DNA of 64,000 nt from a virus. Lineage: Duplodnaviria; Caudoviricetes. Position 1 is the stretch's first letter, and every line of letters starts with the position of its first letter. The translations under genes were made by a program, and so were the position numbers. The stretch lies in the IMG/VR virus record IMGVR_UViG_3300031784_000003; one strand, written 5' to 3'. Of this stretch, positions 45,875 through 64,000 are shown piece after piece. The notes below the pieces were generated by a model, which ran no database searches, had not been told where the DNA came from, and saw nothing but the letters and a program-made list of their open reading frames with translations.

Positions 45875-45953
45875 AAAAAATAATTTTTTTTTAAAAAACA
45901 TTTGACTTTTTAGAAAATAGTATATAAATTTGTATTCAGAAATAAAAAAAGAT

Positions 45954-47369
45954 ATGGAAACACAGTTGACTAATATTGAGAAAGAGAACGTAACATTAAC
46001 TAAAAACGGTATGGTTACTAACCCAACAACACTTAATAAGTGTGTTGACTTATTCTTCTCTATTGGTTCAATGAGAGGTAAGTCAAAAGATAAATTAATT
46101 AAAATGTTTAATGAGGCATTTGAAGAAAATCCTTTGATTACGACAAAAATTCTTTTTTGGGTTAGAGATATTAGAGGTGGTGCGGGTGAAAGAAAAGTGT
46201 TCAGAGATATTATTGAATACTTGGTAACTAACTCACCAGAAACAGTTAGAAAAAATATTAATCTAATACCTGAGTTCGGAAGATGGGATGACATATTGAT
46301 TCTTTTGGGTACAGAATTAGAAGAAGATATGTTTTACCATATCAGAGCAGCGTTAATCAACCGTACCGATGGTTTATGTGCTAAATGGATGCCTAGAAAA
46401 GGTGAGTTGGCAAACAAACTTAGAAAATTGTTTAAGATGACACCTAAACAATATAGAAAAATGTTAGTTGAATTAACTAATGTTGTTGAAACTAAGATGT
46501 GTGATAAGGATTGGGAATCTATTGATTATTCTAAATTACCTTCTTTAGCGTCATCTAGATATCAAAAATCTTTTAAGAGAAACGATACTGTTAGATATGA
46601 GGATTATAAAAATGCGTTGGTTGATGGTACCGCTAAGGTAAATGCTGGGGCAGTATATCCATATGATATCATTAAATCTATGAGATATGGTGGTGACGAT
46701 GTTGTCAACAATAAACAATGGGAATCCCTACCAAATTTTATGGAAGGATCCACTGAAAGAATATTACCAGTGGTAGACGTTTCTGGATCTATGACTTGTT
46801 CAGCAGGAGGAAATCCAAACCTAACATGTATAGATGTGGCAATATCATTAGGTATGTATATATCTGAAAGAAGTGAAGGTAATTTTAAAGATGCGTTTAT
46901 CACATTCTCTGAGAATCCACAACTACAGTATTTAAAAGGTGATTTAAAACAAAGATTGAACCAGTTACTTAGTGCGGAGTGGGGTATGACTACTAATTTA
47001 GAAAAAGTATTTAAATTAATACTTACACAGGCTAAGAACAACAAAATATCTGAAGATATGATGCCGACTAAAATAATTATTTTATCGGATATGGAGTTCA
47101 ACGAAGCAACTCGTAAAGATAGTAGTTCACAATCTATGATTGAAGCTATGTATGAGGAGGCAGGGTATAAAAAACCTGATATCATCTACTGGAATTTAAA
47201 TGCGACTGGAGGTAACTTTCCTGTTGAGTTTGATGAAAACGGAACTGCGTTAGTTTCAGGATTTAGTCCGTCAATTCTTAAATCTTTATTAGGTGGTAAG
47301 AATATGACACCAGAATCCATATTGTTGGATACTGTGAATAGTGAAAGATATGGTGTTATAACCGTATAA
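45954..47369 (+). CDS. TROVE/Ro60-like protein (DUF2828-type helical domain plus vWA)
   Basis: RDIRGGAGER, FGRWDD, CAKWMPR; vWA MIDAS DVSGS, FITFS, ILSDMEF. Confidence 0.75.
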   Translation: METQLTNIEKENVTLTKNGMVTNPTTLNKCVDLFFSIGSMRGKSKDKLIKMFNEAFEENPLITTKILFWVRDIRGGAGERKVFRDIIEYLVTNSPETVRKNINLIPEFGRWDDILILLGTELEEDMFYHIRAALINRTDGLCAKWMPRKGELANKLRKLFKMTPKQYRKMLVELTNVVETKMCDKDWESIDYSKLPSLASSRYQKSFKRNDTVRYEDYKNALVDGTAKVNAGAVYPYDIIKSMRYGGDDVVNNKQWESLPNFMEGSTERILPVVDVSGSMTCSAGGNPNLTCIDVAISLGMYISERSEGNFKDAFITFSENPQLQYLKGDLKQRLNQLLSAEWGMTTNLEKVFKLILTQAKNNKISEDMMPTKIIILSDMEFNEATRKDSSSQSMIEAMYEEAGYKKPDIIYWNLNATGGNFPVEFDENGTALVSGFSPSILKSLLGGKNMTPESILLDTVNSERYGVITV

Positions 47370-50837: not shown

Positions 50838-51745
50838 TAAGTTATATTGGTGGCAAGGCTAGGATTTCTAAATGGATAGTACCATTTATATCCGAAGATA
50901 TAGAAACATACGTAGAACCTTTTAGTGGTATGTTTTGGGTATTTTTTAGAATGGATTTAAAAAAATATCCTAATTTGAAGACTGTGGTTTATAACGACTT
51001 CAACGGGTTAAACGCAAATTTATTTTCTTGTTGTAAGGAGTATGATAAATTATGGGATGAAATAATTAAATATCCTTGTCAACAATTAGGGGTGACAGAT
51101 ACACCTCAGATTTATTCAGAAATGTTTAAACAATACCAGAATGAGTTATTCAGCTCGTCTGGTATTGTTATTACGGAAGAAAATAAATATGATATTGCAG
51201 CAAAATATGTGTACGTATTAACTCAAATATTTTCTGGTTCTAAACCTGAGACATCTAATTATATGGATTATAAAGGTAAATACAGATGTAAAGTATTAAT
51301 ATTTTTAGATAAACTTAAAGATAAAAAATATAGAGAACATTTTGATAAAATCACATTTATAGAAAATTTAGATTTTAGTGATGTTATACAGAAATATGAT
51401 TCCGAAAAAACTTATTTTTATGTCGATCCACCGTATTGGAAAACAGAAAATTACTATTCCAATCATGACTTTGATAGAAACGATCACGAAAGATTGGCAA
51501 TCGTATTAAAAAACATTAAAGGTAGATTTTCTTTAAGTTATTATGATTTTCCATTACTTAAAGAATGGTTTCCTAAAACAGAATATGTTTGGGAAATGAA
51601 AGAGTTTGCTAAAGCAGCAGCCGCTAAAAGTGGTGTAAAACAAAATATGGGTGAAGAATTACTCATTATGAATTATGGTGAGAACAAATACGTATTACCA
51701 TCTGAAGGGACTCAGTTAGATTTATTTAATCATACATTTTTATAG
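50834..51745 (+). CDS. Dam-like (D12 class) N6-adenine DNA methyltransferase
   Basis: SYIGGK, YVEPFSG, YNDFN, YVDPPY. Confidence 0.88.
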   Translation: MISYIGGKARISKWIVPFISEDIETYVEPFSGMFWVFFRMDLKKYPNLKTVVYNDFNGLNANLFSCCKEYDKLWDEIIKYPCQQLGVTDTPQIYSEMFKQYQNELFSSSGIVITEENKYDIAAKYVYVLTQIFSGSKPETSNYMDYKGKYRCKVLIFLDKLKDKKYREHFDKITFIENLDFSDVIQKYDSEKTYFYVDPPYWKTENYYSNHDFDRNDHERLAIVLKNIKGRFSLSYYDFPLLKEWFPKTEYVWEMKEFAKAAAAKSGVKQNMGEELLIMNYGENKYVLPSEGTQLDLFNHTFL

Positions 51746-53938: not shown

Positions 53939-54214
53939 ATGGAAGGGAAAAAAATTATTACTATCGTATCAGAAGTGAAAGAAGACGGTAGACTTTATTT
54001 AGATTTTGGAATAGATAAAATAAGTGGTATAACAAAGTTAGAATTATTGTCTATAATGACTAATAGTCTGGTTATGTCAACAAAAATGGTTTGTGAGGAT
54101 TTAGATTATGAATCTCAAGGTAAACTAATAACTGATGTACTTGATTTACTTAAAAATAACTTATTTGATGGTGATTCTTTTAAAGATTTAGATGTAAAAA
54201 TAAAAGAATTGTAA
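53939..54214 (+). CDS. Hypothetical protein
   Basis: 91-aa ORF. Confidence 0.5.
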   Translation: MEGKKIITIVSEVKEDGRLYLDFGIDKISGITKLELLSIMTNSLVMSTKMVCEDLDYESQGKLITDVLDLLKNNLFDGDSFKDLDVKIKEL

Positions 54215-54401
54215 AAAAATATTTGTTTTTAAGTAAATTATATATATATTTGTAGATATAATAATAACACTAATGAGTTTATCTAAAAAAATATACGAAG
54301 AAATCAAGTATGAGGAAGAAAATATTTCTTACGATGAGAGTGGTTGGGTTGATAGAGTATTGTATACTAAAGATAAATTAAAAGAAAGTTCTTTGAAAAA
54401 T

Positions 54402-54802
54402 GGGGATGGTTTTGGATTTGACAATCAAAGGTTGAGTTCGGAATGATGCAAGCAGGGTTAGATGGAAACCCTTAAACACCTATCAAAACATAAATGCAAA
54501 CGCATACAACGTAGAGGATATCATGAGTATCCCAACTTCTATTACTCGCTCAGCGGTAGTTGAAGAGATTGAATTAATGGAATTAGTTTAATCGGTGGGT
54601 CACACTTACCTAGAAACAGAAAGGTGTAAAAAATAGAGTTGATCGTCAATACTCTATAAACAATTGACGAAAACAGGGTTGTTGGATAACCATGTTATAA
54701 ATAAAACCAAATATTTTGTTTATTTAGAAAAATAAACTAAGCTTGTGAATGATTTTCTTATGGCGATTTGATTGGACGAGGGTTCGACTCCCTCCATCTC
54801 CA
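54402..54802 (+). ncRNA. ssrA: tmRNA
   Basis: 5' GGGGATG..GGATTTGAC; 3' T-arm GAGGG-TTCGACT-CCCTC and CATCTCCA with G3:U; resume codon GCA at 54496, tag ORF ends 54591. Confidence 0.92.
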
Positions 54803-54872
54803 CTAGTGTTGTCGGTTTCTTTGTTCCCTAAAAACAAAGTGGTGGAAGTTGATAGTAATCCTATCGGCCCTT

Positions 54873-54903
54873 TAACCCCTCAGAGTGAGGGGTTATTTTT
54901 TTT
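54873..54903 (+). terminator. Intrinsic terminator
   Basis: TAACCCCTCA-gag-TGAGGGGTTA followed by a T tract. Confidence 0.85.
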
Positions 54904-54944
54904 ATAATTTTAATATTTTGGGAAGGTACAAATTTGAAAATAAA

Positions 54945-55439
54945 ATGGATAAGGTATTAGTTTTAAATAATGACTATACTCCATTAAACTTGACTACACT
55001 TAAAAGGGGGTTTAAATTAGTATATAAAGGTAAGGCAGAAATAATTTATTATGATGAGTCAAATCCTATTATATCTAGTTTTAAAAATTTTAATAGACCT
55101 TCTGTAATTAGATTACACAGATTTATTTATACACCTTATAAAAAAGTACCTTTAAGTAGATATAATGTTTTTAGGAGGGATGATCATAAATGTGTATATT
55201 GTGGGACAAATAAAAATTTAACTATTGATCACGTAATACCTAAATCTAGGGGTGGTGATAATACTTGGAAAAATTTAGTTACGTGTTGTGGTGTATGTAA
55301 CCTTAAAAAAGATGATAGAACACCAGAAGAGGCTGGTATGTTGTTATTAAGAAAACCATATACTCCTACATATATTCAGTTTATTGAAAGAATGAATGGT
55401 GTAATTAAAGAAGAGTGGAAACAATTTTTAATGGTATGA
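54945..55439 (+). CDS. HNH endonuclease (McrA-like)
   Basis: VLVLNNDY start at 54945; CVYCG..TIDHVIPKSRGG..W.NLVTCC..CN.KK. Confidence 0.9.
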   Translation: MDKVLVLNNDYTPLNLTTLKRGFKLVYKGKAEIIYYDESNPIISSFKNFNRPSVIRLHRFIYTPYKKVPLSRYNVFRRDDHKCVYCGTNKNLTIDHVIPKSRGGDNTWKNLVTCCGVCNLKKDDRTPEEAGMLLLRKPYTPTYIQFIERMNGVIKEEWKQFLMV

Positions 55440-55606
55440 AAAAATTTTTTAGTTATCATAAACAAAAAGGGTATTTTAGGTTCAGAATATTTGGATATGG
55501 TTTAACAATTTCCGATAGATTTACACTTAATCAAAAAAGAGGGCATGTGAAATACATTTACTTTTATGGATATGTAATTACTTTTTTAAAACCTAATAAA
55601 TTTTAA
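55415..55606 (+). CDS. Hypothetical protein
   Basis: Short ORF. Confidence 0.4.
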   Translation: METIFNGMKKFFSYHKQKGYFRFRIFGYGLTISDRFTLNQKRGHVKYIYFYGYVITFLKPNKF

Positions 55607-55607
55607 T

Positions 55608-56198
55608 ATGATAGAAAGAATAAAATTGTGGTGGGACTTTGATGGTAGATACTACCATAAAGATTTCATTCAAGGAGTAAAAAATCTTTGGAAATGGTTT
55701 CCTACAATATGGAGAGATCGTGATTGGGACACCAACTTTATCTATGAAATAATTAAAGTAAAATTAAATAACCAATCGGATTATATTGGGGGTAAAAATA
55801 GACACACAAGAGCAAAACGTGATGCCGAATTAATGAAATTATGTTCTCGTTTAATCCAACGTTGTCAAGATGACCACTATGATATGGAATATATGGATTA
55901 TCACGAATCAAATTACAATTTTTTAGATATCACCGATGAAGATGATATTCCTGAAAAATACAGAAAAGGTAAAAAATTGGATATTGAATTAGTTAGTGAA
56001 AACTTTGACGACTACTTTAAAAAATACTCGCGTCAATACAAACGTGTAATGTCAGGTGAGGTTAGTAGATTCAGAAGACCAATTGAAGAAAAAGACAAAC
56101 AACTAATCGCAATGGAGATTGCACATGAGAATCAGTATAGATGTCGTAAGTTACTTTTTAAAATAATGGAAAGATATATTGAAGGATGGTGGGATTAG
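55608..56198 (+). CDS. Hypothetical protein
   Basis: 196-aa ORF, WFPTIWRDRDWD..GWWD. Confidence 0.6.
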   Translation: MIERIKLWWDFDGRYYHKDFIQGVKNLWKWFPTIWRDRDWDTNFIYEIIKVKLNNQSDYIGGKNRHTRAKRDAELMKLCSRLIQRCQDDHYDMEYMDYHESNYNFLDITDEDDIPEKYRKGKKLDIELVSENFDDYFKKYSRQYKRVMSGEVSRFRRPIEEKDKQLIAMEIAHENQYRCRKLLFKIMERYIEGWWD

Positions 56199-56581
56199 TT
56201 TATAAAATTAATTTGTTTTTTTAAAAAAAAGTATTTACATTTGTTTTAAATTAGAAAATTATGAAATCAGGTGCAAGTGGTAAAACTACTCATAGTAGAG
56301 TATCAGCAAAAGAACAATTGAGAGAAATAGAATTGAAAAGGGCATTAAAAATTTTGTCCCAATCTATGTTGAATTATATTAAGAATAATCCTAATTAAGA
56401 TGGTAAGGGTTAGATTTCCAAATGAGACTTATTACGATGTTATCCCAAACTTCAATTGGAATGAATTCAAACCTGGTAAAATTAATAGTGAATTCGTTTT
56501 TGGGTGGTATCAAGATGTTTATATATCTGTCGATAGAGAAGATTACGATGAATATGTTACTAAAAAAAATAATTAATTAAT

Positions 56582-56806
56582 ATGAAAAAAATTTTATTAG
56601 ATACCTTAATTATGTTATCAACAGGAATTGTTTCAGGAATTGGTTTTACTGCATTAACTATTGCATTGGATATGGGTATAAATAATTATTTTATATTTAT
56701 TCCTTCTATTATAGTTAGTTGGTTAATACTTTACCCTTCATATAAATTTTGGTCGGATATCTTTAAAAAAATGTTAAATTATGAAAAATATAATCAAAAA
56801 GATTAA
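56582..56806 (+). CDS. Small membrane protein
   Basis: Two hydrophobic helices. Confidence 0.5.
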   Translation: MKKILLDTLIMLSTGIVSGIGFTALTIALDMGINNYFIFIPSIIVSWLILYPSYKFWSDIFKKMLNYEKYNQKD

Positions 56807-56908
56807 AGATCATATTTCATTGTGGTGGAGAAGAAATATTGTGGATTACTGCCCACCAGAATTAGAAGACGAGGAATTTTCAGAAAAATATAGATAAAAA
56901 ATATAATT

Positions 56909-57679
56909 ATGTCGAATTTTATTTATTCTAGAGTTACAATTGAGCCTTTAGGGGCTATGGACAAAATTTGCAACTTAATAATGGGTATGCCTGAATATGA
57001 GTATGGAAAAGAAACTACAACGGTAGTAAAAACATTTTATACAGAAGAAGAAATAAGAAAACCTTATAAAGGAGAAGAAACTGAATACCCAATAACTGAA
57101 GAGGGAGTTAATCACGGTTGGTTGTATGATAATGTAGGGACTAAATGGATTATAGTGAGTATTGATGATGATATTAGAATTGAATCACCATACTATATAC
57201 CTGATGGTTTTCTTATTAAACTATATAGTTTATGTGTTGATGAATTTGAGGGTGTTAGTATAACATGTAAGTGGTATGACGAAACAGAAACTCAGTGTGG
57301 TACTGCATTAATTTGGAATGGTATCTATACAGAAGATGAAGAAAATTTAATCGGTGAAGAAATTTCTGATCCTGTTTATGAAGTTACTGGAGAAGAAAAC
57401 ATTGATGAAGTTAAAAAATGGATTTTAAGTGAAATTTCTGAAAACTCTTATATTAAATCTGAAGAAGTTGAGGAAATGGATGAGGAAAGACTTCGTGAGT
57501 TATTTGAAGATTGGAAAAGACAAGGTAAATGGGATCATATTGTTGAACGTCAGGAATCTATGTATTATTCTTGTGAAGAAGCAATAGAAACAGAGGACTT
57601 CAATTTCCCTATAACAAAAGTTAAAAAGATTGCAAATAGAAAGTATGAAATGATAACAAATTGTTACCCATTTCAATAA
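56909..57679 (+). CDS. Acidic hypothetical protein (possibly DUF1281/YubB-like)
   Basis: WLYDNVGTKW resembles the W..NWGTKW motif. Confidence 0.4.
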   Translation: MSNFIYSRVTIEPLGAMDKICNLIMGMPEYEYGKETTTVVKTFYTEEEIRKPYKGEETEYPITEEGVNHGWLYDNVGTKWIIVSIDDDIRIESPYYIPDGFLIKLYSLCVDEFEGVSITCKWYDETETQCGTALIWNGIYTEDEENLIGEEISDPVYEVTGEENIDEVKKWILSEISENSYIKSEEVEEMDEERLRELFEDWKRQGKWDHIVERQESMYYSCEEAIETEDFNFPITKVKKIANRKYEMITNCYPFQ

Positions 57680-57727
57680 ATAAGAAATAAATGAAAGTAA
57701 AGTTATTAATAAAATATTAGTTAGAGA

Positions 57728-58036
57728 TTGATTATGTTTGAGATTATTGGTATTGTGTCTTTATTTGCGGTAGTATCTTTTTTACTGTTTATACAATATA
57801 GTTTAGTTGGTGCAGGTGTAATGAAAGAAAGTTTAAAGTGGTATGGGAAAGTTATTAGTTGGATCCCATTATTACCTTTTATTATATTTATTTTATTTTT
57901 TTTAAATTTTATGGTTATGATAGTGTTAAATAAATTAGTTAAGTGGTTTGAATTAAATTGGGGATGGTTTTTTATAAATGGTAGAAATCAAGCGGTTTGG
58001 GCAGAATATTTAAGAAAAAAATATGGTGAAGAATAA
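57728..58036 (+). CDS. Membrane protein
   Basis: Two long hydrophobic segments. Confidence 0.5.
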   Translation: MIMFEIIGIVSLFAVVSFLLFIQYSLVGAGVMKESLKWYGKVISWIPLLPFIIFILFFLNFMVMIVLNKLVKWFELNWGWFFINGRNQAVWAEYLRKKYGEE

Positions 58037-58040
58037 AAAA

Positions 58041-58086
58041 TAAAAAAATATTTTTAAAATATTGACTTTTTAGATAAACTTTTGTA
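58041..58086 (+). promoter_or_regulatory. Promoter of tRNA operon 1 (46-bp repeat, copy 1)
   Basis: taaaaaaatatttttaaaatattgactttttagataaacttttgta, identical to 59495..59540. Confidence 0.8.
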
Positions 58087-58117
58087 TAATTGGTTATATT
58101 TAATTAAAACAGTGAAA

Positions 58118-58204
58118 ATGAAAATACATAATATACATATTAATTTTAGCCAATGGTGTCAACCGTATATCGGCGGATTGGGGTATATTATGGATATAAT
58201 TTAA
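58118..58204 (+). CDS. Attenuator leader peptide 1 (MKIHNIHINFSQWCQPYIGGLGYIMDII)
   Basis: 28-codon ORF between promoter and terminator (in-frame GTG also at 58112); codons match operon 1 tRNAs. Confidence 0.75.
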   Translation: MKIHNIHINFSQWCQPYIGGLGYIMDII

Positions 58205-58230
58205 TTGATAGTTAAATAAAATCAAAGTGA

Positions 58231-58265
58231 AACCCCAATTCAGAAATGATTTGGGGTTTTTTAAT
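58231..58265 (+). terminator. Attenuator terminator 1
   Basis: AAACCCCAATTCA-gaaa-TGATTTGGGGTTT plus U tract; competing strand ATTGGGGT at 58177..58184. Confidence 0.85.
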
Positions 58266-58271
58266 TTATTA

Positions 58272-58347
58272 CGGTATGTGGCCAAGTAGGTTTAAGGCAT
58301 CTCGCTGATATCGAGAAGATTCGTAGGTTCGATCCCTACCATACCGA
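58272..58347 (+). tRNA. tRNA-Ile(GAT)
   Basis: Cloverleaf; TCTCG-CTGATAT-CGAGA. Confidence 0.9.
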
Positions 58348-58356
58348 CAGAACAAA

Positions 58357-58370
58357 AGTTCTTTGACATA
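58357..58370 (+). promoter_or_regulatory. boxA-like antitermination element
   Basis: AGTTCTTTGACATA; also at 59742, with variants at about 47372 and 54387. Confidence 0.6.
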
Positions 58371-58387
58371 TTGTTATAAAAGTGAAT

Positions 58388-58460
58388 GACTCAGTAGCTC
58401 AGTTGGTAGAGCAATTGACTGTTAATCAATCGGTCGCAGGTTCGAATCCTGCCTGAGTCG
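58388..58460 (+). tRNA. tRNA-Asn(GTT)
   Basis: Cloverleaf; loop CTGTTAA. Confidence 0.95.
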
Positions 58461-58461
58461 C

Positions 58462-58523
58462 AAACTAACACAGAATGAATGATACGAGCCTCACAAGTTC
58501 GAAAGGAGTCAGGGTGTTAGTTT
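58462..58523 (+). ncRNA. Small structured element with anticodon-like stem-loop (CAC)
   Basis: 10-bp stem AAACTAACAC/GTGTTAGTTT enclosing CGAGC-CTCACAA-GTTCG. Confidence 0.4.
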
Positions 58524-58527
58524 AAAT

Positions 58528-58611
58528 GGGAATACGCCAAAGTTGGAGAGTTGGGGCAGACTGTAAATCTGTTGTCTTATGATTGAGTAGGTTCGAATCC
58601 TACTATTCTCA
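58528..58611 (+). tRNA. tRNA-Tyr(GTA)
   Basis: Cloverleaf with long variable arm; loop CTGTAAA. Confidence 0.92.
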
Positions 58612-58612
58612 C

Positions 58613-58693
58613 AAAATATTAAAAGGAAGATTTCAGCAAAAATAACTACGAACTGCAAATTTGGATATGTAAAAACATTTTCCTGAATATTTT
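58613..58693 (+). ncRNA. Minimal Y-RNA-like element with Cys anticodon-loop mimic
   Basis: AAAATATT/AATATTTT and AGGAAGAT/ATTTTCCT stems, TTCAGCAA motif, CGAA-CTGCAAA-TTTG hairpin. Confidence 0.5.
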
Positions 58694-58697
58694 ATTA

Positions 58698-58768
58698 GCG
58701 TCTCTGGTGTAACGGTAGCACCAACGGCTCCAACCCGTTAAGTAAGAGTTCGAATCTTTTGGGGCGCG
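58698..58768 (+). tRNA. tRNA-Trp(CCA)
   Basis: AACGG-CTCCAAC-CCGTT. Confidence 0.9.
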
Positions 58769-58773
58769 CAAAT

Positions 58774-58849
58774 GGTGATGTAGCTCAGTTGGTAGAGCAA
58801 TGGACTGAAAATCCTTGTGTCGGTGGTTCGATTCCGTCCATCACCACCA
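58774..58849 (+). tRNA. tRNA-Phe(GAA)
   Basis: Cloverleaf with encoded CCA. Confidence 0.95.
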
Positions 58850-58857
58850 AATTTTAA

Positions 58858-58932
58858 CTGGGTATTGGCTAATTGGTAAGCCGCCACATTTGGGATGTGG
58901 ACATAGTGTGAGTTCGAGTCTCGCTACCCAGA
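58858..58932 (+). tRNA. tRNA-Pro(TGG)
   Basis: CCACA-TTTGGGA-TGTGG. Confidence 0.92.
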
Positions 58933-58939
58933 CTAATAT

Positions 58940-59013
58940 TGTCCTGTAGACGAATTGGCAAAGTCATCACGCTTTGAACGTGAAGTTTGGAAGTTCGAGC
59001 CTTCCCAGGACAA
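58940..59013 (+). tRNA. tRNA-Gln(TTG)
   Basis: TCACG-CTTTGAA-CGTGA. Confidence 0.9.
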
Positions 59014-59015
59014 CT

Positions 59016-59089
59016 GTGTATGAAGCTAAAGAGGTCGAGGCGTCGGGTTGTGATTCCGATAATAGTGGGTTCGAGTCCCATCGTACACC
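59016..59089 (+). tRNA. tRNA-His(GTG)
   Basis: TCGGG-TTGTGAT-TCCGA; C73 discriminator. Confidence 0.9.
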
Positions 59090-59093
59090 TAAT

Positions 59094-59180
59094 GGAAAGA
59101 TGACAGAGTGGTTTATTGTGGCACCCTGCTAAGGTGTTGTACTCGAAAGGGTACCATAGGTTCAAATCCTATTCTTTCCG
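59094..59180 (+). tRNA. tRNA-Ser(GCT)
   Basis: GCACC-CTGCTAA-GGTGT; long variable arm. Confidence 0.92.
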
Positions 59181-59186
59181 CAATAT

Positions 59187-59258
59187 GGGGATGTGATGTA
59201 ACGGTGAACATGCTACTCTTATACAGTAGTCTCGGTGGTTCGACTCCACCCATCCCTA
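59187..59258 (+). tRNA. tRNA-Ile(TAT)
   Basis: CTACT-CTTATAC-AGTAG; GGGGATG/CATCCCT acceptor stem. Confidence 0.85.
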
Positions 59259-59262
59259 CAAC

Positions 59263-59335
59263 ACACTCTTAGTTCAATGGATTAGAACCTATGACTACGG
59301 ATCATAAAATGGGAGTTCGAATCTCTCAGAGTGTA
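59263..59335 (+). tRNA. tRNA-Arg(ACG)
   Basis: TATGA-CTACGGA-TCATA. Confidence 0.9.
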
Positions 59336-59404
59336 CAATAAACTTATTTTTGCTACAATAAACAGATAAAGTTTATCATGCAAAATCTAGTTTAGTGAAC
59401 TAAT

Positions 59405-59478
59405 GGTCAGATGCCTGAGTGGTTTAAAGGGGTAGTCTGCAAAACTATTTTTCGGGGGTTCGAATCCCTCTCTGACCT
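59405..59478 (+). tRNA. tRNA-Cys(GCA)
   Basis: GTAGT-CTGCAAA-ACTAT; U73. Confidence 0.92.
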
Positions 59479-59494
59479 CATAAATAAAAAAAAT

Positions 59495-59540
59495 TAAAAA
59501 AATATTTTTAAAATATTGACTTTTTAGATAAACTTTTGTA
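59495..59540 (+). promoter_or_regulatory. Promoter of tRNA operon 2 (46-bp repeat, copy 2)
   Basis: Identical to 58041..58086; followed by Bacteroidota -7 element TAACTTTG. Confidence 0.8.
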
Positions 59541-59578
59541 ACTTTGTGTATATTTAATTAAAAACGAAATAAAATTCA

Positions 59579-59677
59579 GTGAAAACTACAATGACATACA
59601 GATTAGAGGTTGCTAAGGCAAAAATGGATGGGGCGGATTCGCTTCTACCAAATCTTAGGGTATATCATTATAGTTAA
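59579..59677 (+). CDS. Attenuator leader peptide 2 (MKTTMTYRLEVAKAKMDGADSLLPNLRVYHYS)
   Basis: 32-codon GTG-start ORF in the same cagtgaaaa context as leader 1; codons match operon 2 tRNAs. Confidence 0.75.
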   Translation: MKTTMTYRLEVAKAKMDGADSLLPNLRVYHYS

Positions 59678-59706
59678 TCAAAAAAATTTAAAATACTATA
59701 TTATGG

Positions 59707-59740
59707 AAACCCTAAGTGAAAACTTAGGGTTTTTTGTTTT
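59707..59740 (+). terminator. Attenuator terminator 2
   Basis: AAACCCTAAGT-gaaa-ACTTAGGGTTT plus U tract; competing CTTAGGGT at 59654..59661. Confidence 0.88.
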
Positions 59741-59741
59741 T

Positions 59742-59755
59742 AGTTCTTTGACATA
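59742..59755 (+). promoter_or_regulatory. boxA-like element
   Basis: AGTTCTTTGACATA immediately after terminator 2. Confidence 0.6.
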
Positions 59756-59766
59756 TTAAAAAAAAT

Positions 59767-59852
59767 GGAAGAGTGGCAGAGTTGGTTTATTGCACCTGTC
59801 TTGAAAATAGGAGTACTTAACGGTACCGTAGGTTCGAATCCTACCTCTTCCT
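59767..59852 (+). tRNA. tRNA-Ser(TGA)
   Basis: CCTGT-CTTGAAA-ATAGG; long variable arm. Confidence 0.92.
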
Positions 59853-59855
59853 CAA

Positions 59856-59999
59856 AATGATAATAAAGGGATTGTTTCTGCAACAATTATTTTAGCCTTT
59901 TAAGCTCGGGGTCGTAGGTTCGAATCCTACCTGAGGACATTTATTGTCTTCAGTAGCTTAGTGGTAGAGCACGTATACAACCCAATCCTGATTATCATT
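59856..59999 (+). ncRNA. YrlA-like Y RNA (circularly permuted tRNA mimic)
   Basis: Closing stems AATGATAAT/ATTATCATT and GGGATTG/CAATCCT; T-arm precedes loop-closed acceptor stem CTGAGGAC/GTCTTCAG, then D-arm. Confidence 0.8.
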
Positions 60000-60004
60000 T
60001 ATTA

Positions 60005-60080
60005 GGTCCATTGGTGTAATGGTTTAACATACATCACTGTCTATGATGTGCTGAGAGTTCGATTCTCTCATGGACCGCCA
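60005..60080 (+). tRNA. tRNA-Asp(GTC)
   Basis: Cloverleaf with CCA. Confidence 0.93.
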
Positions 60081-60081
60081 C

Positions 60082-60154
60082 AGTCTCTTAACTCAGTTGG
60101 TAGAGTGCTTGTTTTACATGCAAGATGTCGTAGGTTCGAATCCTACAGAGACTA
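60082..60154 (+). tRNA. tRNA-Val(TAC)
   Basis: CTTGT-TTTACAT-GCAAG. Confidence 0.92.
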
Positions 60155-60162
60155 CTAAATAC

Positions 60163-60236
60163 CGCCCGTTGGACAAGTGGTTTAAGTCGTTTCCCTTTCA
60201 CGGAAAAGATCATGGGTTCGAATCCCATACGGGTGA
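60163..60236 (+). tRNA. tRNA-Glu(TTC)
   Basis: TTTCC-CTTTCAC-GGAAA. Confidence 0.92.
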
Positions 60237-60242
60237 CTATTA

Positions 60243-60314
60243 GGTTTTGTAGTTTAGTCGGTAAAACTCTTGATTTGTAATCAAGTGTCCTCAGTTCGAA
60301 TCTGAGCGAAACCT
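60243..60314 (+). tRNA. tRNA-Thr(TGT)
   Basis: CTTGA-TTTGTAA-TCAAG. Confidence 0.9.
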
Positions 60315-60320
60315 CAACAA

Positions 60321-60395
60321 TCCTTCGTAGCTCAGTTGGTTTAGAGCAGTACACTTTTAATGTACGGGTCACAGGTTCGATTCCTGTCGGGGGAA
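60321..60395 (+). tRNA. tRNA-Lys(TTT)
   Basis: GTACA-CTTTTAA-TGTAC. Confidence 0.93.
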
Positions 60396-60429
60396 CTTAA
60401 ATATACCGAATTCGGTGTAATTAAAAAAT

Positions 60430-60507
60430 AGCGGGGTAGACTGGAGGTGGTTCCAGCTCGGTCTCATAAGCCGAATTACGTGGGTTCGAGTCCCATCCCC
60501 GCAACCA
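60430..60507 (+). tRNA. tRNA-Met(CAT), initiator-like
   Basis: TCGGT-CTCATAA-GCCGA; unpaired A1:A72; CCA encoded. Confidence 0.85.
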
Positions 60508-60510
60508 ATT

Positions 60511-60584
60511 GGGTCATTGGTGAAGATGGCTATCACACCTGATTTGCACTCAGGAGTCCTCGGTTCGATGCCGAGATGTATCCA
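60511..60584 (+). tRNA. tRNA-Ala(TGC) with bulged acceptor stem
   Basis: CCTGA-TTTGCAC-TCAGG; G3:U70 present; one extra T in the 3' acceptor strand. Confidence 0.8.
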
Positions 60585-60750
60585 CTAATAATAAAAATAA
60601 AAATAAAAAGTATGAAAGAAGTAATGTCTGGGACAATTAAGTCCTCAAAGGAAAATTTTAATATGTTGAGACATAGAAAAAATTCAATCGATTTAAGTAA
60701 GTTGGTAGAATTTATTAAATTTAAAAAGATTAGGAAAAAATAATCTTAAT

Positions 60751-60823
60751 GCAGGTATCGTATAGTGGTTTATTATGTCTGACTTCCAATCAGAGGACGA
60801 GAGTTCGATTCTCTCTACCTGCT
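60751..60823 (+). tRNA. tRNA-Gly(TCC)
   Basis: TCTGA-CTTCCAA-TCAGA; U73. Confidence 0.92.
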
Positions 60824-60829
60824 CAAAAT

Positions 60830-60904
60830 GCCAAAGTGACGGGAAATGGTATACCTCTTTGTCTTAGAAACAAAGGTTTGTGAGTTCGAATCTCACCTTT
60901 GGTA
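60830..60904 (+). tRNA. tRNA-Leu(TAG) with short variable loop
   Basis: TTTGT-CTTAGAA-ACAAA; 5-nt variable region GGTTT. Confidence 0.8.
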
Positions 60905-61134
60905 CAATTATTATTAAAATATTTGTTTTTTAATTTAATAGTTTTTATATTTGTTAAAAAAATATTATGGGAATACCTCAAATCACTTTAATTTTATTAT
61001 TTTCTTTAAGTTTATTAGCTGCAGCTCATTTGCACGGTAAAGAAAGAACCCCACATAACTTTTGGGTTACATTTATTGCAGTCATCATCGAAGTATCTAT
61101 TTTAATATGGGGTGGGTTTTTTTAAATTAGTATT

Positions 61135-61488
61135 ATGAGTAAAAGAACTATAGAGGATGTAGAAAGAGAACTTTATATGGCACAATTCAGAGTTAAAAAA
61201 TGTCAATATAATGATCACCTTTATGATATGGAAAAATGGGAATATGAAGTTGAAATTCTTAAAGATGAATTAAAAAATATGAAAATGGAACAAACACCAG
61301 TAGAATGGTTTTTTAAACAACTTACAGAGGTTGATTATGGATGTATAAACAAAACATTCTTACAAAACAATAACAGTTTAGCGGGCCATAAGTTGAGAGA
61401 ACTTCTTGAACAAGCCAAAGAAATGGAAAAAGAAAGATTAGAATCTCTTAAAGATTTTGATAATTGGAAAGAATGGAAAAACTCATAA
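61135..61488 (+). CDS. Hypothetical protein
   Basis: 117-aa ORF; QTPVEWF and LLEQAKEMEKE motifs. Confidence 0.55.
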   Translation: MSKRTIEDVERELYMAQFRVKKCQYNDHLYDMEKWEYEVEILKDELKNMKMEQTPVEWFFKQLTEVDYGCINKTFLQNNNSLAGHKLRELLEQAKEMEKERLESLKDFDNWKEWKNS

Positions 61489-61643
61489 TAATATGTCATA
61501 CTATAGAATCAAAATTAGAATGGATTAAAGAAGATGGTAAAGATTGGTTAGAACCATTTGTTGAAGCGGTATATAAAGTTTGGGACAAATTTAACATCCA
61601 ATATGTGAGATATTCTTGGTGATATTAAAAACTTTTAGTATAT

Positions 61644-61910
61644 TTGTATTATGAAAAATTGAAACCAATGGCAAAAATAAGTAAATTAGCACAAAGACAA
61701 GTTGTATCAAATCATCACGATATTCATGTTGGATTGACTGGTGACATCGGTTACATATCAATAACTGATAACGGATTGTACCCAGATAATGATAGCAGAA
61801 CACATAGACGTGATTTGAACTTTCATACAATGATGGTTCCTCTCATGACCAGACAACAACTCAAAGATTTGAAAATAGCAATTGAAGAAGTCTTAAAAAA
61901 TTCTAAATGA
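61644..61910 (+). CDS. Hypothetical protein
   Basis: ORF; ATG of MAKISK is the likelier start. Confidence 0.5.
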   Translation: MYYEKLKPMAKISKLAQRQVVSNHHDIHVGLTGDIGYISITDNGLYPDNDSRTHRRDLNFHTMMVPLMTRQQLKDLKIAIEEVLKNSK

Positions 61911-62185
61911 TTATGAGTACGAATAAACGAATAAAAGAAACTTTTGAAAAGTTAGGTAAAGATTTGATTATATCTAAACAAGGATGTGATACAAAAAAGA
62001 TGTTGGAGAACATCAAAAATAAAGTAGAGATAAAAAAAATTGTTGCAGAAATAATTGACACACTAACAGTATCTTCTATTATGGTAGATGCGTGGTGGAT
62101 GGATTTAAGTGATGAACAAGAACAAGAAGTTTACAACAAATTAGAAGAAATTATTACTAGAAGAATTGGTAAAATGAAGATTTAA
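61907..62185 (+). CDS. Hypothetical protein
   Basis: 92-aa ORF. Confidence 0.5.
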   Translation: MIMSTNKRIKETFEKLGKDLIISKQGCDTKKMLENIKNKVEIKKIVAEIIDTLTVSSIMVDAWWMDLSDEQEQEVYNKLEEIITRRIGKMKI

Positions 62186-62213
62186 TAATAATTTTATTAA
62201 AAAATAAATTTAA

Positions 62214-62906
62214 ATGAAGAAAAAAATTACTTTTATTAGCGATACCCACACCAAACACGAAAAACTAAATAGTTTTTTACCTGGTGGAGACATCCTTATT
62301 TGTGGGGGTGATATTAGTAGTAGAGGTTATGTCTCAGAAATAGAAAACTTTTTAAAATGGTTTGATAATATAGATAATTACGATTTTAAAATTTTTATCG
62401 CAGGAAATCACGATTTTGGGTTTCAAGATGATTATGAAAAAATTATGGGGTTATTAACTGGTTACAAAAATATCGATTATCTTCAGGATGAAAAAATGGA
62501 ACTTTGGGACGATGAAGATATGCAGTTGATTGTATATGGATCCCCTTGGCAACCTGAATTTCATAATTGGGCATTTAATTTACCTAGAGGTGAGAAAATA
62601 AAAGAAAAATGGGATATGATTCCACACAATACAGATATTTTAATTACTCACGGCCCACCATACGGTAAATTAGACTATGTAAATTATGACAACATCAATG
62701 TTGGTTGCGAAGAACTATTAAAAGTTGTGGAGGATATAAAACCTAAAATACATGTGTTTGGACATATTCATGAAGGGTTTGGTTATGTTTTTGACGGTAA
62801 CACACATTATATTAATGCGGCAGTATTAAATGGTAGATATGAATTTAGAAATAAACCAGTAAATGTTGAGTGGGACATGATAACTAACGAAATACAATTT
62901 TTATGA
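62214..62906 (+). CDS. Calcineurin-like metallophosphoesterase (MPPED-like)
   Basis: ISDTH, GGDIS, AGNHD, ITHGPP, FGHIHE. Confidence 0.9.
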   Translation: MKKKITFISDTHTKHEKLNSFLPGGDILICGGDISSRGYVSEIENFLKWFDNIDNYDFKIFIAGNHDFGFQDDYEKIMGLLTGYKNIDYLQDEKMELWDDEDMQLIVYGSPWQPEFHNWAFNLPRGEKIKEKWDMIPHNTDILITHGPPYGKLDYVNYDNINVGCEELLKVVEDIKPKIHVFGHIHEGFGYVFDGNTHYINAAVLNGRYEFRNKPVNVEWDMITNEIQFL

Positions 62907-63211
62907 AATCCATAAGACAAATTTTTAAAACTAACGATTCACTTATGGAAGAACCTGAGGTTTCAGAATTAATTGATTATTGTAAAGATTTAGAAGATGA
63001 AGTTGTAGAATGTATCCAAAAAAATGATCAGACAATAGTTTTAAAACAACTAATTTCAGAAATTAGTAAAAGTTGTTATGAATTAATTGAGGAAGATAAA
63101 AAGTCTGAACGATGGGAACATGATTTTGAAAAGATTGACTTTAAAAAATCTATAATTAATTTAAGAGAATATATAATAAAATATTGTTTAGATAATAAAA
63201 TAAAATTATGA
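62903..63211 (+). CDS. Hypothetical protein
   Basis: 102-aa ORF overlapping both neighbours by 4 nt. Confidence 0.55.
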   Translation: MKSIRQIFKTNDSLMEEPEVSELIDYCKDLEDEVVECIQKNDQTIVLKQLISEISKSCYELIEEDKKSERWEHDFEKIDFKKSIINLREYIIKYCLDNKIKL

Positions 63212-63645
63212 TAAAGTATAGAATATATTTGGATGACATAAGAACTCCAGTGAGTCCTAATAACGAATGGGTTGAAGGTGTTGAAGAATGGACAGTTGTT
63301 CGTTCATATGATGAATTCGTTCAAAAAGTAAATTCGGTAGGGTTAGAAAATATTGAAATAATTTCGTTGGATCACGATTTGGGTGATACTGCGATGAACG
63401 AGTGGTTATATGGTGTAACTAAAAACTACTCAATTAATTATGATAATATTACCGAAAAGACTGGTTACGACTGTGCTAAATGGTTAGTTAATGAGTGGAT
63501 GGATGGTAAACCAGTTGTTAGGGTAGTAACACATTCGGCAAATGCAATCGGTAGTGCCAACATTATGGGTTATGTAAATAATTATTTACACTTAAATCGT
63601 TTACCGCAAAATTGTGTAAGAGTACAAATAGAACATACAGTTTAA
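63208..63645 (+). CDS. Cyclic-phosphate-processing receiver-like domain protein
   Basis: IYLDDIRTP, ISLDHDLG, TGYDCAKWL, THSAN. Confidence 0.78.
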   Translation: MIKYRIYLDDIRTPVSPNNEWVEGVEEWTVVRSYDEFVQKVNSVGLENIEIISLDHDLGDTAMNEWLYGVTKNYSINYDNITEKTGYDCAKWLVNEWMDGKPVVRVVTHSANAIGSANIMGYVNNYLHLNRLPQNCVRVQIEHTV

Positions 63646-63646
63646 T

Positions 63647-64000
63647 ATGAAAGTAATATTTTTAGATCACGATGGTGTGATATGTTTATCTGATCAGTGG
63701 GGTGGTCGTTATAAGAAAAAAGGATTTAACTCTAATCCTGAAACCCCTTTAGATATTAGAATGGATAATTTTGACACTAAGGCAGTTAAAGTTCTTAATA
63801 AAATTATTGAGGAAACTGGTTGTGAGTTGGTTATTAGTTCAGATTGGAAGAGATGGGGAACGTTAGAACAAATGAAGGAAATGTATGTGACTAGAGGTAT
63901 TAAACCACCGATAGATCTAACACCAATGATACAAGAATGTACGGTACATAGTGATACATTTATATGGTCACCTATGTGGGAGTTGGAACAAACCAGATCA
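63647..64000 (+). CDS. HAD-superfamily phosphatase (RNA-repair SAK-type), 3'-truncated
   Basis: MKVIFLDHDGVI, LNKIIEETGCELVISSDWK; runs off the window end. Confidence 0.78.
   Translation, partial: MKVIFLDHDGVICLSDQWGGRYKKKGFNSNPETPLDIRMDNFDTKAVKVLNKIIEETGCELVISSDWKRWGTLEQMKEMYVTRGIKPPIDLTPMIQECTVHSDTFIWSPMWELEQTRS

Follow-up and report, generated by a model that had tools for sequence, protein, structure and literature searches.

The 64,000-nt stretch of DNA analysed here (the window) belongs to a giant freshwater phage in which a short leader reading frame, leader ORF 2, precedes a block of ten tRNA genes. We consider it likely that this arrangement, unit 2, is a ribosome-mediated leader-peptide transcription attenuator gating the ten-gene tRNA operon, a function which is inferred in the absence of expression data. 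Wherever predictions of the attenuator model could be tested at the level of sequence they were all met, with the anti-antiterminator resting on fold predictions that do not all agree, and to this extent the model is supported. As proposed, RNA polymerase would start at the conserved promoter and transcribe the 32-codon leader, in which codons 2–23 would sample each array 2 tRNA. With fast decoding, the ribosome would cover CUUAGGGUAUAUCAUUAUAGU in region 2 and continue through to the stop codon, region 3 would pair with region 4 and the resulting 13-bp/U-tract terminator would halt transcription 32 nt short of tRNA-Ser; if no ribosome were loaded, region 1 would sequester region 2 and termination would likewise ensue. 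Scarcity of any one of the ten cognate aminoacyl-tRNAs would stall the ribosome in the sensing window, where it would cover region 1, and the free region 2 would capture region 3 as it emerges, a pairing that would prevent the terminator and permit transcription of the ten tRNA genes. In effect, the supply of phage tRNAs would feed back negatively on itself, with any of the ten species able to act alone (OR logic), the phage probably making these tRNAs only when their codons are decoded slowly. The trigger may be a host tRNA pool that fits phage codons poorly, or the loss of tRNAs from the host. Where transcription starts, that the leader is translated, that transcription and translation are coupled, which way the system responds and what triggers it physiologically are all inferred.

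Table 1. Coordinates of the features of units 1 and 2 within the window.
Feature	Position	Strand	Details and basis
Paralogous unit 1	58029-58271	+	Promoter block 58029-58109; leader ATG 58118 to TAA 58204
Unit 1 antiterminator core	58177-58184	+	ATTGGGGT; scan and folds
Unit 1 terminator	58229-58262	+	Scan and folds
tRNA array 1	58272-59479	+	Twelve tRNAs; begins 9 nt past terminator 1
Unit 2 promoter block	59483-59563	+	TTGACT 59518-59523; conserved TATATTTAATTAAAA 59549-59563; conservation only
Leader ORF 2	59579-59677	+	32 sense codons + TAA; GTG start at 59579; product MKTTMTYRLEVAKAKMDGADSLLPNLRVYHYS
Sensing window, leader 2 codons 2-23	59582-59647	+	19/22 codons read by array 2; 10/10 tRNAs represented
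Region 1, anti-antiterminator strand	59584-59604	+	Pairs with 59650-59675 when ribosome absent (MFE folds)
Region 2, antiterminator 5' strand	59654-59674	+	Within codons 26-32; core CTTAGGGT at 59654-59661
Region 3, antiterminator 3' strand, doubling as terminator 5' arm (59705-59717)	59695-59717	+	Scan, folds, covariation
Region 4, terminator 3' arm (59722-59734) and U-tract	59722-59741	+	Terminator scan; tail TGTTTTTAGT
tRNA array 2	59767-60905	+	Ten tRNAs; ARAGORN and Rfam, exactly ten found

A sequence-only reading of this DNA had described a 32-codon leader, an 11-bp terminator at 59707–59732, an antiterminator strand complementary to ACCCTAAG at 59709–59716 and ten downstream tRNAs of given identity. 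The leader was found to run from GTG to TAA as described, and both complementary strands were located. The 11-bp terminator is present as the core of a longer hairpin detected by the terminator scan (59705–59734; 13 pairs including four G-C, a GAAA loop, a T-rich tail, −16.9 kcal/mol), which constitutes the 3:4 helix. ARAGORN and Rfam agreed with the ten identities, in the order Ser-TGA, Asp-GTC, Val-TAC, Glu-TTC, Thr-TGT, Lys-TTT, Met-CAT, Ala-TGC, Gly-TCC and Leu-TAG. Array 2 also contains a tRNA-like or Y-RNA-like element at 59854–60004 and a 46-aa ORF at 60603–60743. Gaps of 9 nt between terminator 1 and the first tRNA of array 1, and of 32 nt between U-tract 2 and tRNA-Ser, leave no room for a promoter, and thus expression of either array needs terminator readthrough.

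The reported match of 19 of the 22 sensing-window codons to array 2, with all ten tRNAs covered, was reproduced on recounting under four-way U34 wobble. TAC, AGA and TTA are unmatched and, under strict wobble, ACT, GTT, GCT and CTT are additionally lost, these four codons being dependent on the four-way rule. The choice of codon box fits the anticodons of the array, serine being encoded by rare TCG and leucine by rare CTT/CTA; similarly, serine in leader 1 is AGC, which accounts for 1% of Ser codons and fits the array 1 anticodon. tRNAs for two of the unmatched codons, Arg-TCT and Leu-TAA, for which a search had been proposed, are both present in a third tRNA cluster (Leu-TAA, Arg-TCT, Asp, Glu, Met) of the relatives L010, L013 and L016, which belong to the graded set of related viral contigs used for comparison. 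A cluster with Leu-TAA and Arg-TCT is predicted for this phage too, about 8 kb past 62906 and beyond the end of the window. In these three relatives the third cluster has no leader in front of it, and its long spacers, though structured in appearance, gave zero Rfam matches.

The three overlapping helices required for attenuation are predicted in both units, with whole-leader z-scores of −4.4 and −4.1. In leader 2, the MFE fold assigns the 1:2 helix −23.8 kcal/mol (z −2.6), an equivalent being predicted in L011, L013 and L016, and the 2:3 antiterminator hairpin (59654–59674 with 59695–59716) has a predicted energy of −14.5 kcal/mol. By chance, leader ORF 2 would contain eight contiguous nucleotides exactly complementary to the terminator arm with a probability of ∼0.007. 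Two strand 3 columns (C/T and T/G) are compensated in both strand 2 and strand 4, all strand covariation being derived from a single paralogue split, unit 1 versus unit 2. When folding was modelled with a ribosome footprint across which pairing is forbidden, a stall at codon 22 or earlier left the antiterminator of leader 2 free with P≥0.67, a value that drops to 0.46 and 0.16 for stalls at codons 23 and 24, respectively. The modelled switch point therefore falls at codons 22–24 and, in 7/7 units, is no more than one codon away from where the matched run ends. Folding to equilibrium in the presence of the whole terminator cannot discriminate between ribosome states, the terminator winning in every one (P 0.9), and nascent-RNA models were therefore used instead; it follows that the switch must act kinetically, like that of trp. 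With no ribosome on the nascent RNA, the equilibrium model of leader 2 still prefers 2:3.

The same parts could be read with the opposite polarity, fast translation of the leader keeping the ribosome close behind the polymerase and suppressing the terminator so that tRNAs are made when decoding is good. This is an unlikely reading, although the geometry lends it some support, as the leader 2 stop codon is situated just 27 nt 5' of the terminator stem (23–36 nt in the other classes). In an E. coli study (PMC4824070), an intrinsic terminator is reported to be repressed when it lies a few base pairs past a translated gene and to recover with distance, which also favours the reading. However, a ribosome at the stop codon covers ∼12–15 nt downstream and leaves the 5' arm clear by ∼10 nt or more, and the resulting positive feedback on tRNA supply is without obvious use. 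Nor does the coupling mechanism need an in-ORF complement of the terminator arm, a feature that is independent in four classes and covaries. Furthermore, the matched run stops where stalling ceases to favour 2:3, which is predicted by the classical attenuation model only.

Unit 2 has a paralogue upstream. The contention that leader 2 is unrelated to leader 1 proved wrong, as the units align from promoter to U-tract; the accompanying claim of a common architecture is borne out, promoter block, start context and switch strands being common to both. Shared segments comprise the 81-nt promoter block (90% identity), TGAAAA at the start codon, GGGTATAT[T/C]AT, GAAACCC[C/T]AA and TT[G/A]GGGTTTTTT. 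A 25-nt core of the promoter block occurs twice in the window with zero occurrences expected, and the pattern TTGACTTTT-N5-AAACTTT-NN-TA-N8-TATATTTAATTA is retained in 8/8 units from four phages. A scan for sigma-70-type promoters matched this sequence no more often than it did shuffled sequence; the promoter assignment rests on conservation alone, with the transcription start being inferred. In leader 1, ATG 58118 was taken as the start because the GTG upstream of it reads GTA in L011. Array 1 (Ile-GAT, Asn, Tyr, Trp, Phe, Pro, Gln, His, Ser-GCT, Ile-TAT, Arg-ACG, Cys) reads 15 of the 16 codons at positions 2–17 of this leader, with 11 of the 12 tRNAs covered; counted as a run of 16 consecutive array 1 codons that covers 11 of 12 tRNAs, the match has P<5e-6. 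Unit 1 would play an equal role for these other twelve tRNAs.

Two further, independent leader classes were observed in distant relatives, each unalignable with leaders 1 and 2 and each followed by a different tRNA set. The L038 leader, MRTTGQHINSNSQQEKCWYEGICPVVRMS, precedes Asn, Gly, Glu, Lys, His, Cys, Trp, Tyr, Gln, Ser-GCT and Ile, with 18 of 21 codons and 11 of 11 tRNAs matched, and the L040 leader, MKNLNQTYNTTYRTEERLSRREML, precedes Glu, Arg-TCT and Thr, with 10 of 17 codons matched. Within each of these ORFs lies a stretch complementary to the terminator arm of the same unit (P 0.005–0.012) and, in a 4×4 leader-array matrix, all four leader classes score highest with their own array. 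Composition also follows the array in individual relatives. In L039, tRNAs for Trp, Lys and Gly are absent and exactly the W, K and G codons are replaced in the leader, an exception being four Asn codons for which an Asn tRNA was not detected. Leader 1 of L016 is reshuffled, with in-frame indels, and still matches at 17 of 18 codons and covers 11 of 12 tRNAs.

Alternatively, the mini-ORF may be ordinary or untranslated and the hairpin a constitutive partial terminator or insulator, with its readthrough under the control of an antitermination factor of phage or host, the codon match having no sensing role. Expression data are nil, four public RNA runs which were examined being uninformative, with tRNA fragments of relatives only and nothing on the leaders. 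The leader-array match is also broken in some relatives: G006/L037, a complete genome, has the L038 leader without tRNAs for Asn, Gly, Lys or His, and leader 2 of L014–16 retains GAG, GAA and GAT, the corresponding Asp and Glu tRNAs residing in an ungated cluster. Other tRNA clusters in these phages are without leader or terminator, and a promoter-like motif occurs 3' of the terminator in L037–L040, where the gate may consequently only add to a basal level. These observations keep the alternative in consideration, but we judge it improbable, as it fails to account for four unrelated peptides that each mirror their own tRNA set, for the reshuffling of the L016 leader 1 while its composition was kept, for the choice of rare boxes such as AGC, TCG and CTN, or for the presence at the 3' end of each ORF of a complement to its own terminator arm. 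At the same locus in L001–L004, identified through a 256-aa neighbour gene, there are no tRNAs, and protein genes replace the arrays in L003. The lineage is without a cultured model: in searches for close relatives in culture, blastn with the array region yielded generic tRNA matches only, and tblastn yielded none for a 966-aa protein and only matches of ≤28% identity for a 789-aa protein.

The attenuation model requires that the leader be translated. The leader 2 start codon, GTG in this phage and the sole non-ATG start among those inspected within the window, is ATG in L011, L013 and L016. In these orthologues the 32-codon frame is held with zero frameshifting indels, the stop codon is at the same position, TAA being changed to TAG, and 9 of 17 variable sites are at third codon positions. 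Start, frame, stop and third-position pattern in the relatives thus favour translation of leader 2, support that comes from comparative data, as translation itself has not been observed. The host is probably a Bacteroidota-like organism which does not use Shine-Dalgarno sites. Orthologue substitutions that stay within the set of served codons (9/14 versus 0.63 expected) are not significant and weakly informative; within codons 10–22, a window chosen post hoc, 9/9 stay in the set. In four lake or reservoir metagenome populations leader 2 is without variants while nearby tRNAs and spacers vary, and so there are no compensatory changes to score there.

These features bear on whether the switch could operate without a ribosome, the triplets binding tRNA anticodons directly in the manner of T-box specifiers. 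T-box leaders do sense tRNA status through terminator/antiterminator pairs, which provides a precedent for such an RNA-only switch. However, a cmscan of 54000–64000 at E≤1 returned only tRNA, tmRNA and weak YrlA and plastid-UTR chance matches, with no T-box (RF00230) and no His, Leu, Thr or Trp leader family. The exchange of GTG and ATG, the held frame and stop and the third-position bias point instead to translation, and ten specifiers within one reading frame would, to our knowledge, be unprecedented. The RNA-only switch is therefore regarded as very unlikely.

The possibility that an ORF and hairpin arose by chance in an AT-rich spacer can be virtually dismissed: the two arrays jointly read 90% of all codons used, so that any ORF partly matches one or the other, but the leader 2 census has P∼2e-4 against random strings drawn from phage codon usage and that of leader 1 is rarer still, no other of 519 small six-frame ORFs and none of 13,837 22-codon windows from 36 real genes equals leader 2, and the pattern recurs in two further independent classes and in phage phiCbK.

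Why phages carry tRNA genes, and how these are controlled, is an open question, the debate revolving mainly around compensation for codon usage and escape from host tRNA-cleaving defence. If ribosome-mediated attenuation of unit 2 is true, phages measure translational demand and tune tRNA output, and classical attenuation extends from amino-acid pathways to the decoding machinery. It would also furnish a small sensor of natural origin that integrates several inputs on tRNA availability and could be reused as a reporter. A broader proposal, which we advance only tentatively and hold to be rather doubtful at present, is that codon-census attenuators represent a widespread, undescribed closed-loop control of tRNA supply in large phages, in which a stall at any served codon induces the block. 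They would form an inducible counter-measure to poor host pools or tRNA-cleaving host defence nucleases, the stall in itself prompting substitution by the phage-encoded tRNA, and the two arrays here, gated separately and dividing the 20 amino acids among them, would be two independent alarm circuits.

The leader-peptide attenuators of enterobacteria include ilvGMEDA (Ile/Val/Leu), thr (Thr/Ile), trpL, hisL, leuL and pheL. Unit 2 resembles them in the succession of promoter, short leader with regulatory codons, three overlapping helices (1:2, 2:3 and 3:4, here predicted) and first gene, in the position of the regulatory codons 5' of strand 2 and in having a stop codon within or beside strand 2. 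It differs in being phage-encoded, in bearing no resemblance to any Rfam leader family and in its leader, which samples 10–12 tRNA species one to three times each, whereas enterobacterial leaders repeat one to three amino acids. All described leader-peptide attenuators of which we know regulate amino-acid biosynthesis or related enzymes; the departure here is that the regulated genes are ten tRNAs, and a literature search did not find leader-peptide attenuation of tRNA genes described. The T-box riboswitch, which is untranslated, binds one uncharged tRNA directly and controls synthetase or amino-acid genes. The T-box senses tRNA status and chooses between terminator and antiterminator, as is proposed for unit 2; unit 2 differs in the evidence for its translation and in the absence of a T-box match.

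The logic of unit 2 is paralleled in the Caulobacter phage phiCbK (JX100813), in which a promoter, a 32-codon ORF (51341–51439) with QFVRQIQVVRNI and an annotated terminator (51465–51502) are followed by tRNAs Phe, Val, Ile, Ile, Val, Gln and Gln, the ORF including a copy of the terminator 3' arm. In a second phiCbK unit, gp083, 22 of 44 codons are P, K, L or S, an observation based on a rough look only. The record annotates these features merely as 'terminator' and 'hypothetical protein'. While the logic is alike, the sequences are unrelated, phiCbK being GC-rich with an alphaproteobacterial host. As phiCbK shares the design, the attenuator proposed for unit 2 is testable in a cultured phage-host pair, in Caulobacter.

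Unit 2, the second of two tRNA units of the window phage, comprises a promoter, a 32-codon leader, a terminator and the ten-tRNA array 2. The leader, terminator, antiterminator strand and matched array described in the sequence-only reading are confirmed, and the coordinates it assigned to the ORF, the terminator and the complementary strands are all correct. The interpretation as a ribosome-controlled attenuator draws support from several independent lines of sequence evidence, with no experimental proof. Because the first tRNA lies only 32 nt past the U-tract in unit 2 and 9 nt in unit 1, the arrays of the window phage can only be expressed via terminator readthrough.

Parts of unit 2 and examples of a recurrent upstream motif, in window positions
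Feature	Position	Strand	Description
Leader ORF 2	GTG 59579 to TAA 59677	+	32 sense codons
Strand 2 core (antiterminator strand, in ORF)	59654-59661		CTTAGGGT
Terminator of unit 2	59705-59734	+	terminator scan: 13 pairs, GAAA loop, T-rich tail
Strand 3 segment (in antiterminator 3' strand and terminator 5' arm)	59709-59716		ACCCTAAG, exact complement of CTTAGGGT
Array 2, ten tRNAs	59767-60905	+	Ser-TGA, Asp, Val, Glu, Thr, Lys, Met, Ala, Gly-TCC, Leu-TAG
(A)TATTTAT motif examples	652, 10752, 13692, 27398, 30782, 34420, 53118		upstream of genes; TATATTTG at 53118

With U34 tRNAs reading entire four-codon boxes, array 2 serves 19 of the 22 codons in the leader 2 sensing window (codons 2-23) with 10/10 tRNAs represented, as originally claimed; under strict wobble ACT, GTT, GCT and CTT join TAC, AGA and TTA as unserved codons. 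Background codon usage was taken from 36 window genes, in which 51.5% of codons are read by array 2 and 39% by array 1. Equally long random codon strings attain the leader 2 value (10/10 tRNAs, at least 19/22 codons) with P about 2e-4, none of 13,837 22-codon windows of real genes attains it, and leader 2 is the sole ORF at its value among 519 small ORFs in six frames. Leader 1 contains a run of 16 array-1 codons covering 11 of the twelve tRNAs (P<5e-6; 0/14,053 gene windows). The Ser codon of leader 2, TCG (6% of Ser codons), needs Ser-TGA and its Leu codons CTT/CTA (9% and 7% of Leu codons) need Leu-TAG; in leader 1 the Ser codon AGC (1% of Ser codons) needs Ser-GCT, and ATA and ATY are both present, matching two Ile tRNAs. 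Codon choice in the leaders is set by codon box, beyond the amino acid alone, and synonymous codons in both sensing windows are rarer than expected (P 0.03-0.045).

TAC, AGA and TTA are located in strand 1, the anti-antiterminator, and are kept in 4/4 orthologues of leader 2, with CTA replacing TTA in L016. Tyr (TAC) is served by array 1, and the Leu-TAA and Arg-TCT tRNAs, for which a search had been proposed, are found in a third cluster in the relatives L013, L016 and G003, ~6.6-8.3 kb past the phosphoesterase gene; the corresponding position in the window phage would lie just beyond the window end. The third cluster (L010 3200-5500; L013 18780-20654; L016 16160-17400) holds Leu-TAA, Arg-TCT, Asp, Glu, Met and Leu-CAG, with an HNH-like ORF among the tRNAs and long, GC-richer, structured-looking spacers which may be introns or unknown RNAs. 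No leader or terminator was found in this cluster, and L016 15600-18600, the only stretch scanned, gave no Rfam matches besides tRNA. The tRNA-Ser-TGA orthologue of L014-16 (L016 8914-8996) was missed by ARAGORN; its best Rfam model is tRNA-Sec (47.9 bits), yet the anticodon loop is CTTGAAA, with a UGA anticodon. Within array 2 of the window, tRNA-like halves in odd order occupy 59854-60004 between tRNA-Ser-TGA and tRNA-Asp, a T-arm-bearing 3' half (59897-59940) preceding a D-arm-bearing 5' half (59947-59985), with a weak Rfam YrlA (Y RNA-like) match at 59907-59973 (30.9 bits, E 0.0016, below gathering). A 46-aa ORF (MKEVMSGTIKSSKENFNMLRHRKNSIDLSKLVEFIKFKKIRKK, 60603-60743) without Pfam match lies between tRNA-Ala and tRNA-Gly, in a spacer of the same length in L011 and L013.

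Leader 2 had been considered unrelated to leader 1. This is wrong, as the two units align end to end and are paralogues. The 81-nt promoter block is 90% identical and the start context (A/G)TGAAAA is common to both, as are strand 2 (TT[G/A]GGGTATAT[T/C]AT), strand 3 (GAAACCC[C/T]AA) and strand 4, the terminator 3' arm (TT[G/A]GGGTTTTTT); only the codon-sampling stretch, from the start to strand 2, is rewritten. In strand 3 the units differ at two positions (C/T, T/G), each compensated in both strand 2 and strand 4, with 98% and 94% of cells paired vs 47-71% with the partner slid one column. Mutually exclusive helices would predict such three-way compensation, its source being one duplication event only. 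In lake and reservoir metagenomes, T58250G in terminator 1, which converts a U-U mismatch to a G-U pair, occurs in 4/4, and a 63-nt deletion polymorphism in the tRNA-Arg-ACG/tRNA-Cys spacer (59342-59404) in 3/4.

Orthologues were retrieved via neighbouring genes and a search pattern derived from the switch strands. L011 (DNA 88.7% identical) has the same arrays as the window, L013 has these arrays and the third cluster, and in L014-16 array 2 lacks Asp and Glu. Leader 2 begins with ATG in each of the three lineages, vs GTG in the window, and retains 32 codons with the stop (TAA or TAG) in place. Because the upstream in-frame GTG 58112 of unit 1 is GTA in L011 and ATG 58118, which aligns with the leader 2 GTG, is kept, leader 1 would start at 58118. 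Third codon positions account for 9/17 variable sites of leader 2. Derived codons fall within the array-2 set in 9/14 cases, no better than the 0.63 expected from single-base neighbours; for codons 10-22 the count is 9/9, in a window picked post hoc. Leader 1 of L016 is more telling than these substitutions, its peptide being reshuffled with in-frame indels (MIMNNIHSNPIQWCQPFYIY...) while 17/18 codons remain array-1 codons and 11/12 tRNAs are covered. Leader 2 of L014-16 retains GAG, GAA and GAT, and the Asp and Glu tRNAs of these phages are in the third, ungated cluster.

Independent leaders occur in distant relatives (L037-L040), in which the neighbouring phosphoesterase is just 50-56% identical and the tRNAs lie elsewhere in the genome. 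L037, L038 and L039 share the layout promoter, ORF MRTTGQHINSNSQQEKCWYEGICPVVRMS, terminator AGACCCCGAACT...GTTTGGGGTTTTTTT, with AGTTCGG in the 3' end of the ORF complementary to the terminator arm. The L038 leader precedes Asn, Gly, Glu, Lys, His, Cys, Trp, Tyr, Gln, Ser-GCT, Gly and Ile tRNAs, matching 18/21 sensing codons and 11/11 tRNA species. Here Gly, Glu and Lys are grouped with Gln, His, Ile and others, and the leader includes G, E and K; array 2 holds these tRNAs in the window, and the leader 1 sensing run lacks G, E and K. L039 has no Trp, Lys or Gly tRNAs, and exactly W, K and both G codons are replaced in its leader, which contains four Asn codons with no Asn tRNA in the available fragment. 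The L040 ORF MKNLNQTYNTTYRTEERLSRREML includes GGGAGATG, the complement of the terminator arm CATCTCCC in the same unit, and precedes Glu, Arg-TCT and Thr with 10/17 codons matched, including AGA for Arg-TCT. In a four-by-four leader/array table each leader scores highest with its own array, the chance of an in-ORF complement of the terminator arm is low in every leader class (P 0.005-0.012 each), and leaders are present in 4/4 terminator-preceded tRNA blocks found and in none of the terminator-less blocks. G006/L037, rated complete, carries the L038 leader, yet tRNAs for Asn, Gly, Lys and His are all absent from the whole genome. Because of the mismatches in L037, L014-16 and L039, leaders therefore track arrays loosely, perhaps lagging after tRNA loss. 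Between terminator and first tRNA, L037-L040 carry a TTTG...TAtcTTTG motif (reverse complement; e.g. L038rc 4468-4521), which is promoter-like by comparison with Bacteroidota promoters, so that in these phages the gate may merely add to a basal level. The window has only its first half (GTTCTTTGACAT, 59747-59758), with no room for the second.

Folding of the whole leader 2 is much more stable than that of shuffled sequence (z -4.4). Because the terminator, once complete, dominates every modelled state, any switch must on these models be kinetic, as in the trp attenuator. In a nascent-RNA model, folded up to the terminator 5' arm with no pairing across the ribosome (-15 to +12 of the A site), strand 2 captures the 5' arm with P 0.77 for stalls at codons 1-21, falling to 0.67, 0.46 and 0.16 at codons 22, 23 and 24; codon 23 is the last of the array-matched run. 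The run end and the model switch point also agree within one codon in leader 1, both L016 leaders, L038, L039 and L040. Past the switch point, strand 2 dictates the codons. Folding predicts a 1:2 helix (-23.8 kcal/mol) in every orthologue, without clear preference over 2:3 in the equilibrium model of leader 2.

The window (28% G+C) encodes large-phage functions (SbcC-like nuclease, tail and lysis domains, HNH endonuclease) and, on the + strand, 22 tRNA genes and one tmRNA gene. DNA near-identical to it is present in many lake, reservoir and drinking-water metagenomes; no close relative was found among cultured phages. Because all 48 inspected gene starts lack a Shine-Dalgarno sequence and use ATG (48/48), a Bacteroidota-type host is suggested. 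An (A)TATTTAT motif recurs upstream of many genes, from a few up to about 18 nt ahead of the ATG, and is carried by both attenuator units as TATATTTAATTA; because it is close to the ATG and Shine-Dalgarno sites are nowhere seen, it hints at 5' leaders that are very short or missing and at a promoter element specific to phage or host. The tmRNA (54402-54803; Rfam 104 bits) has an unusually long ARAGORN-predicted tag, ANAYNVEDIMSIPTSITRSAVVEEIELMELV, and is followed by a terminator (54873-54895) and an HNH endonuclease gene. The tag in L015/L016 (2417-2785) is AKEEVVFA, and in L003 ARAGORN calls no tmRNA despite 88% identity over the stretch. A 479-aa protein (45930-47369) matches PHROG 850 'RNA-binding protein', Pfam DUF2828 and DUF7788.

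The anatomy of unit 2 resembles that of classical leader-peptide attenuators, the multivalent ilv and thr leaders being closest. Unlike these, the window leaders would regulate tRNAs and sample 10-12 species. The locus has no match to an Rfam leader or T-box model, and full-text literature searches yielded no account of tRNA genes or phage tRNA arrays being attenuated. On this interpretation unit 2 is a known regulatory principle in a new form, one that recurs in unrelated phages. The record of the Caulobacter phage phiCbK (JX100813) annotates terminators directly before three tRNA blocks, and a 32-codon ORF with QFVRQIQVVRNI precedes Phe, Val, Ile, Ile, Val, Gln and Gln. Both Gln codons and the two annotated Val codons occur in this ORF, whose CCGGGCGGGCC is a copy of the terminator 3' arm. 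Because a tRNA-matched leader and a terminator-arm copy are found there, phiCbK offers a cultured system for testing the attenuator idea.
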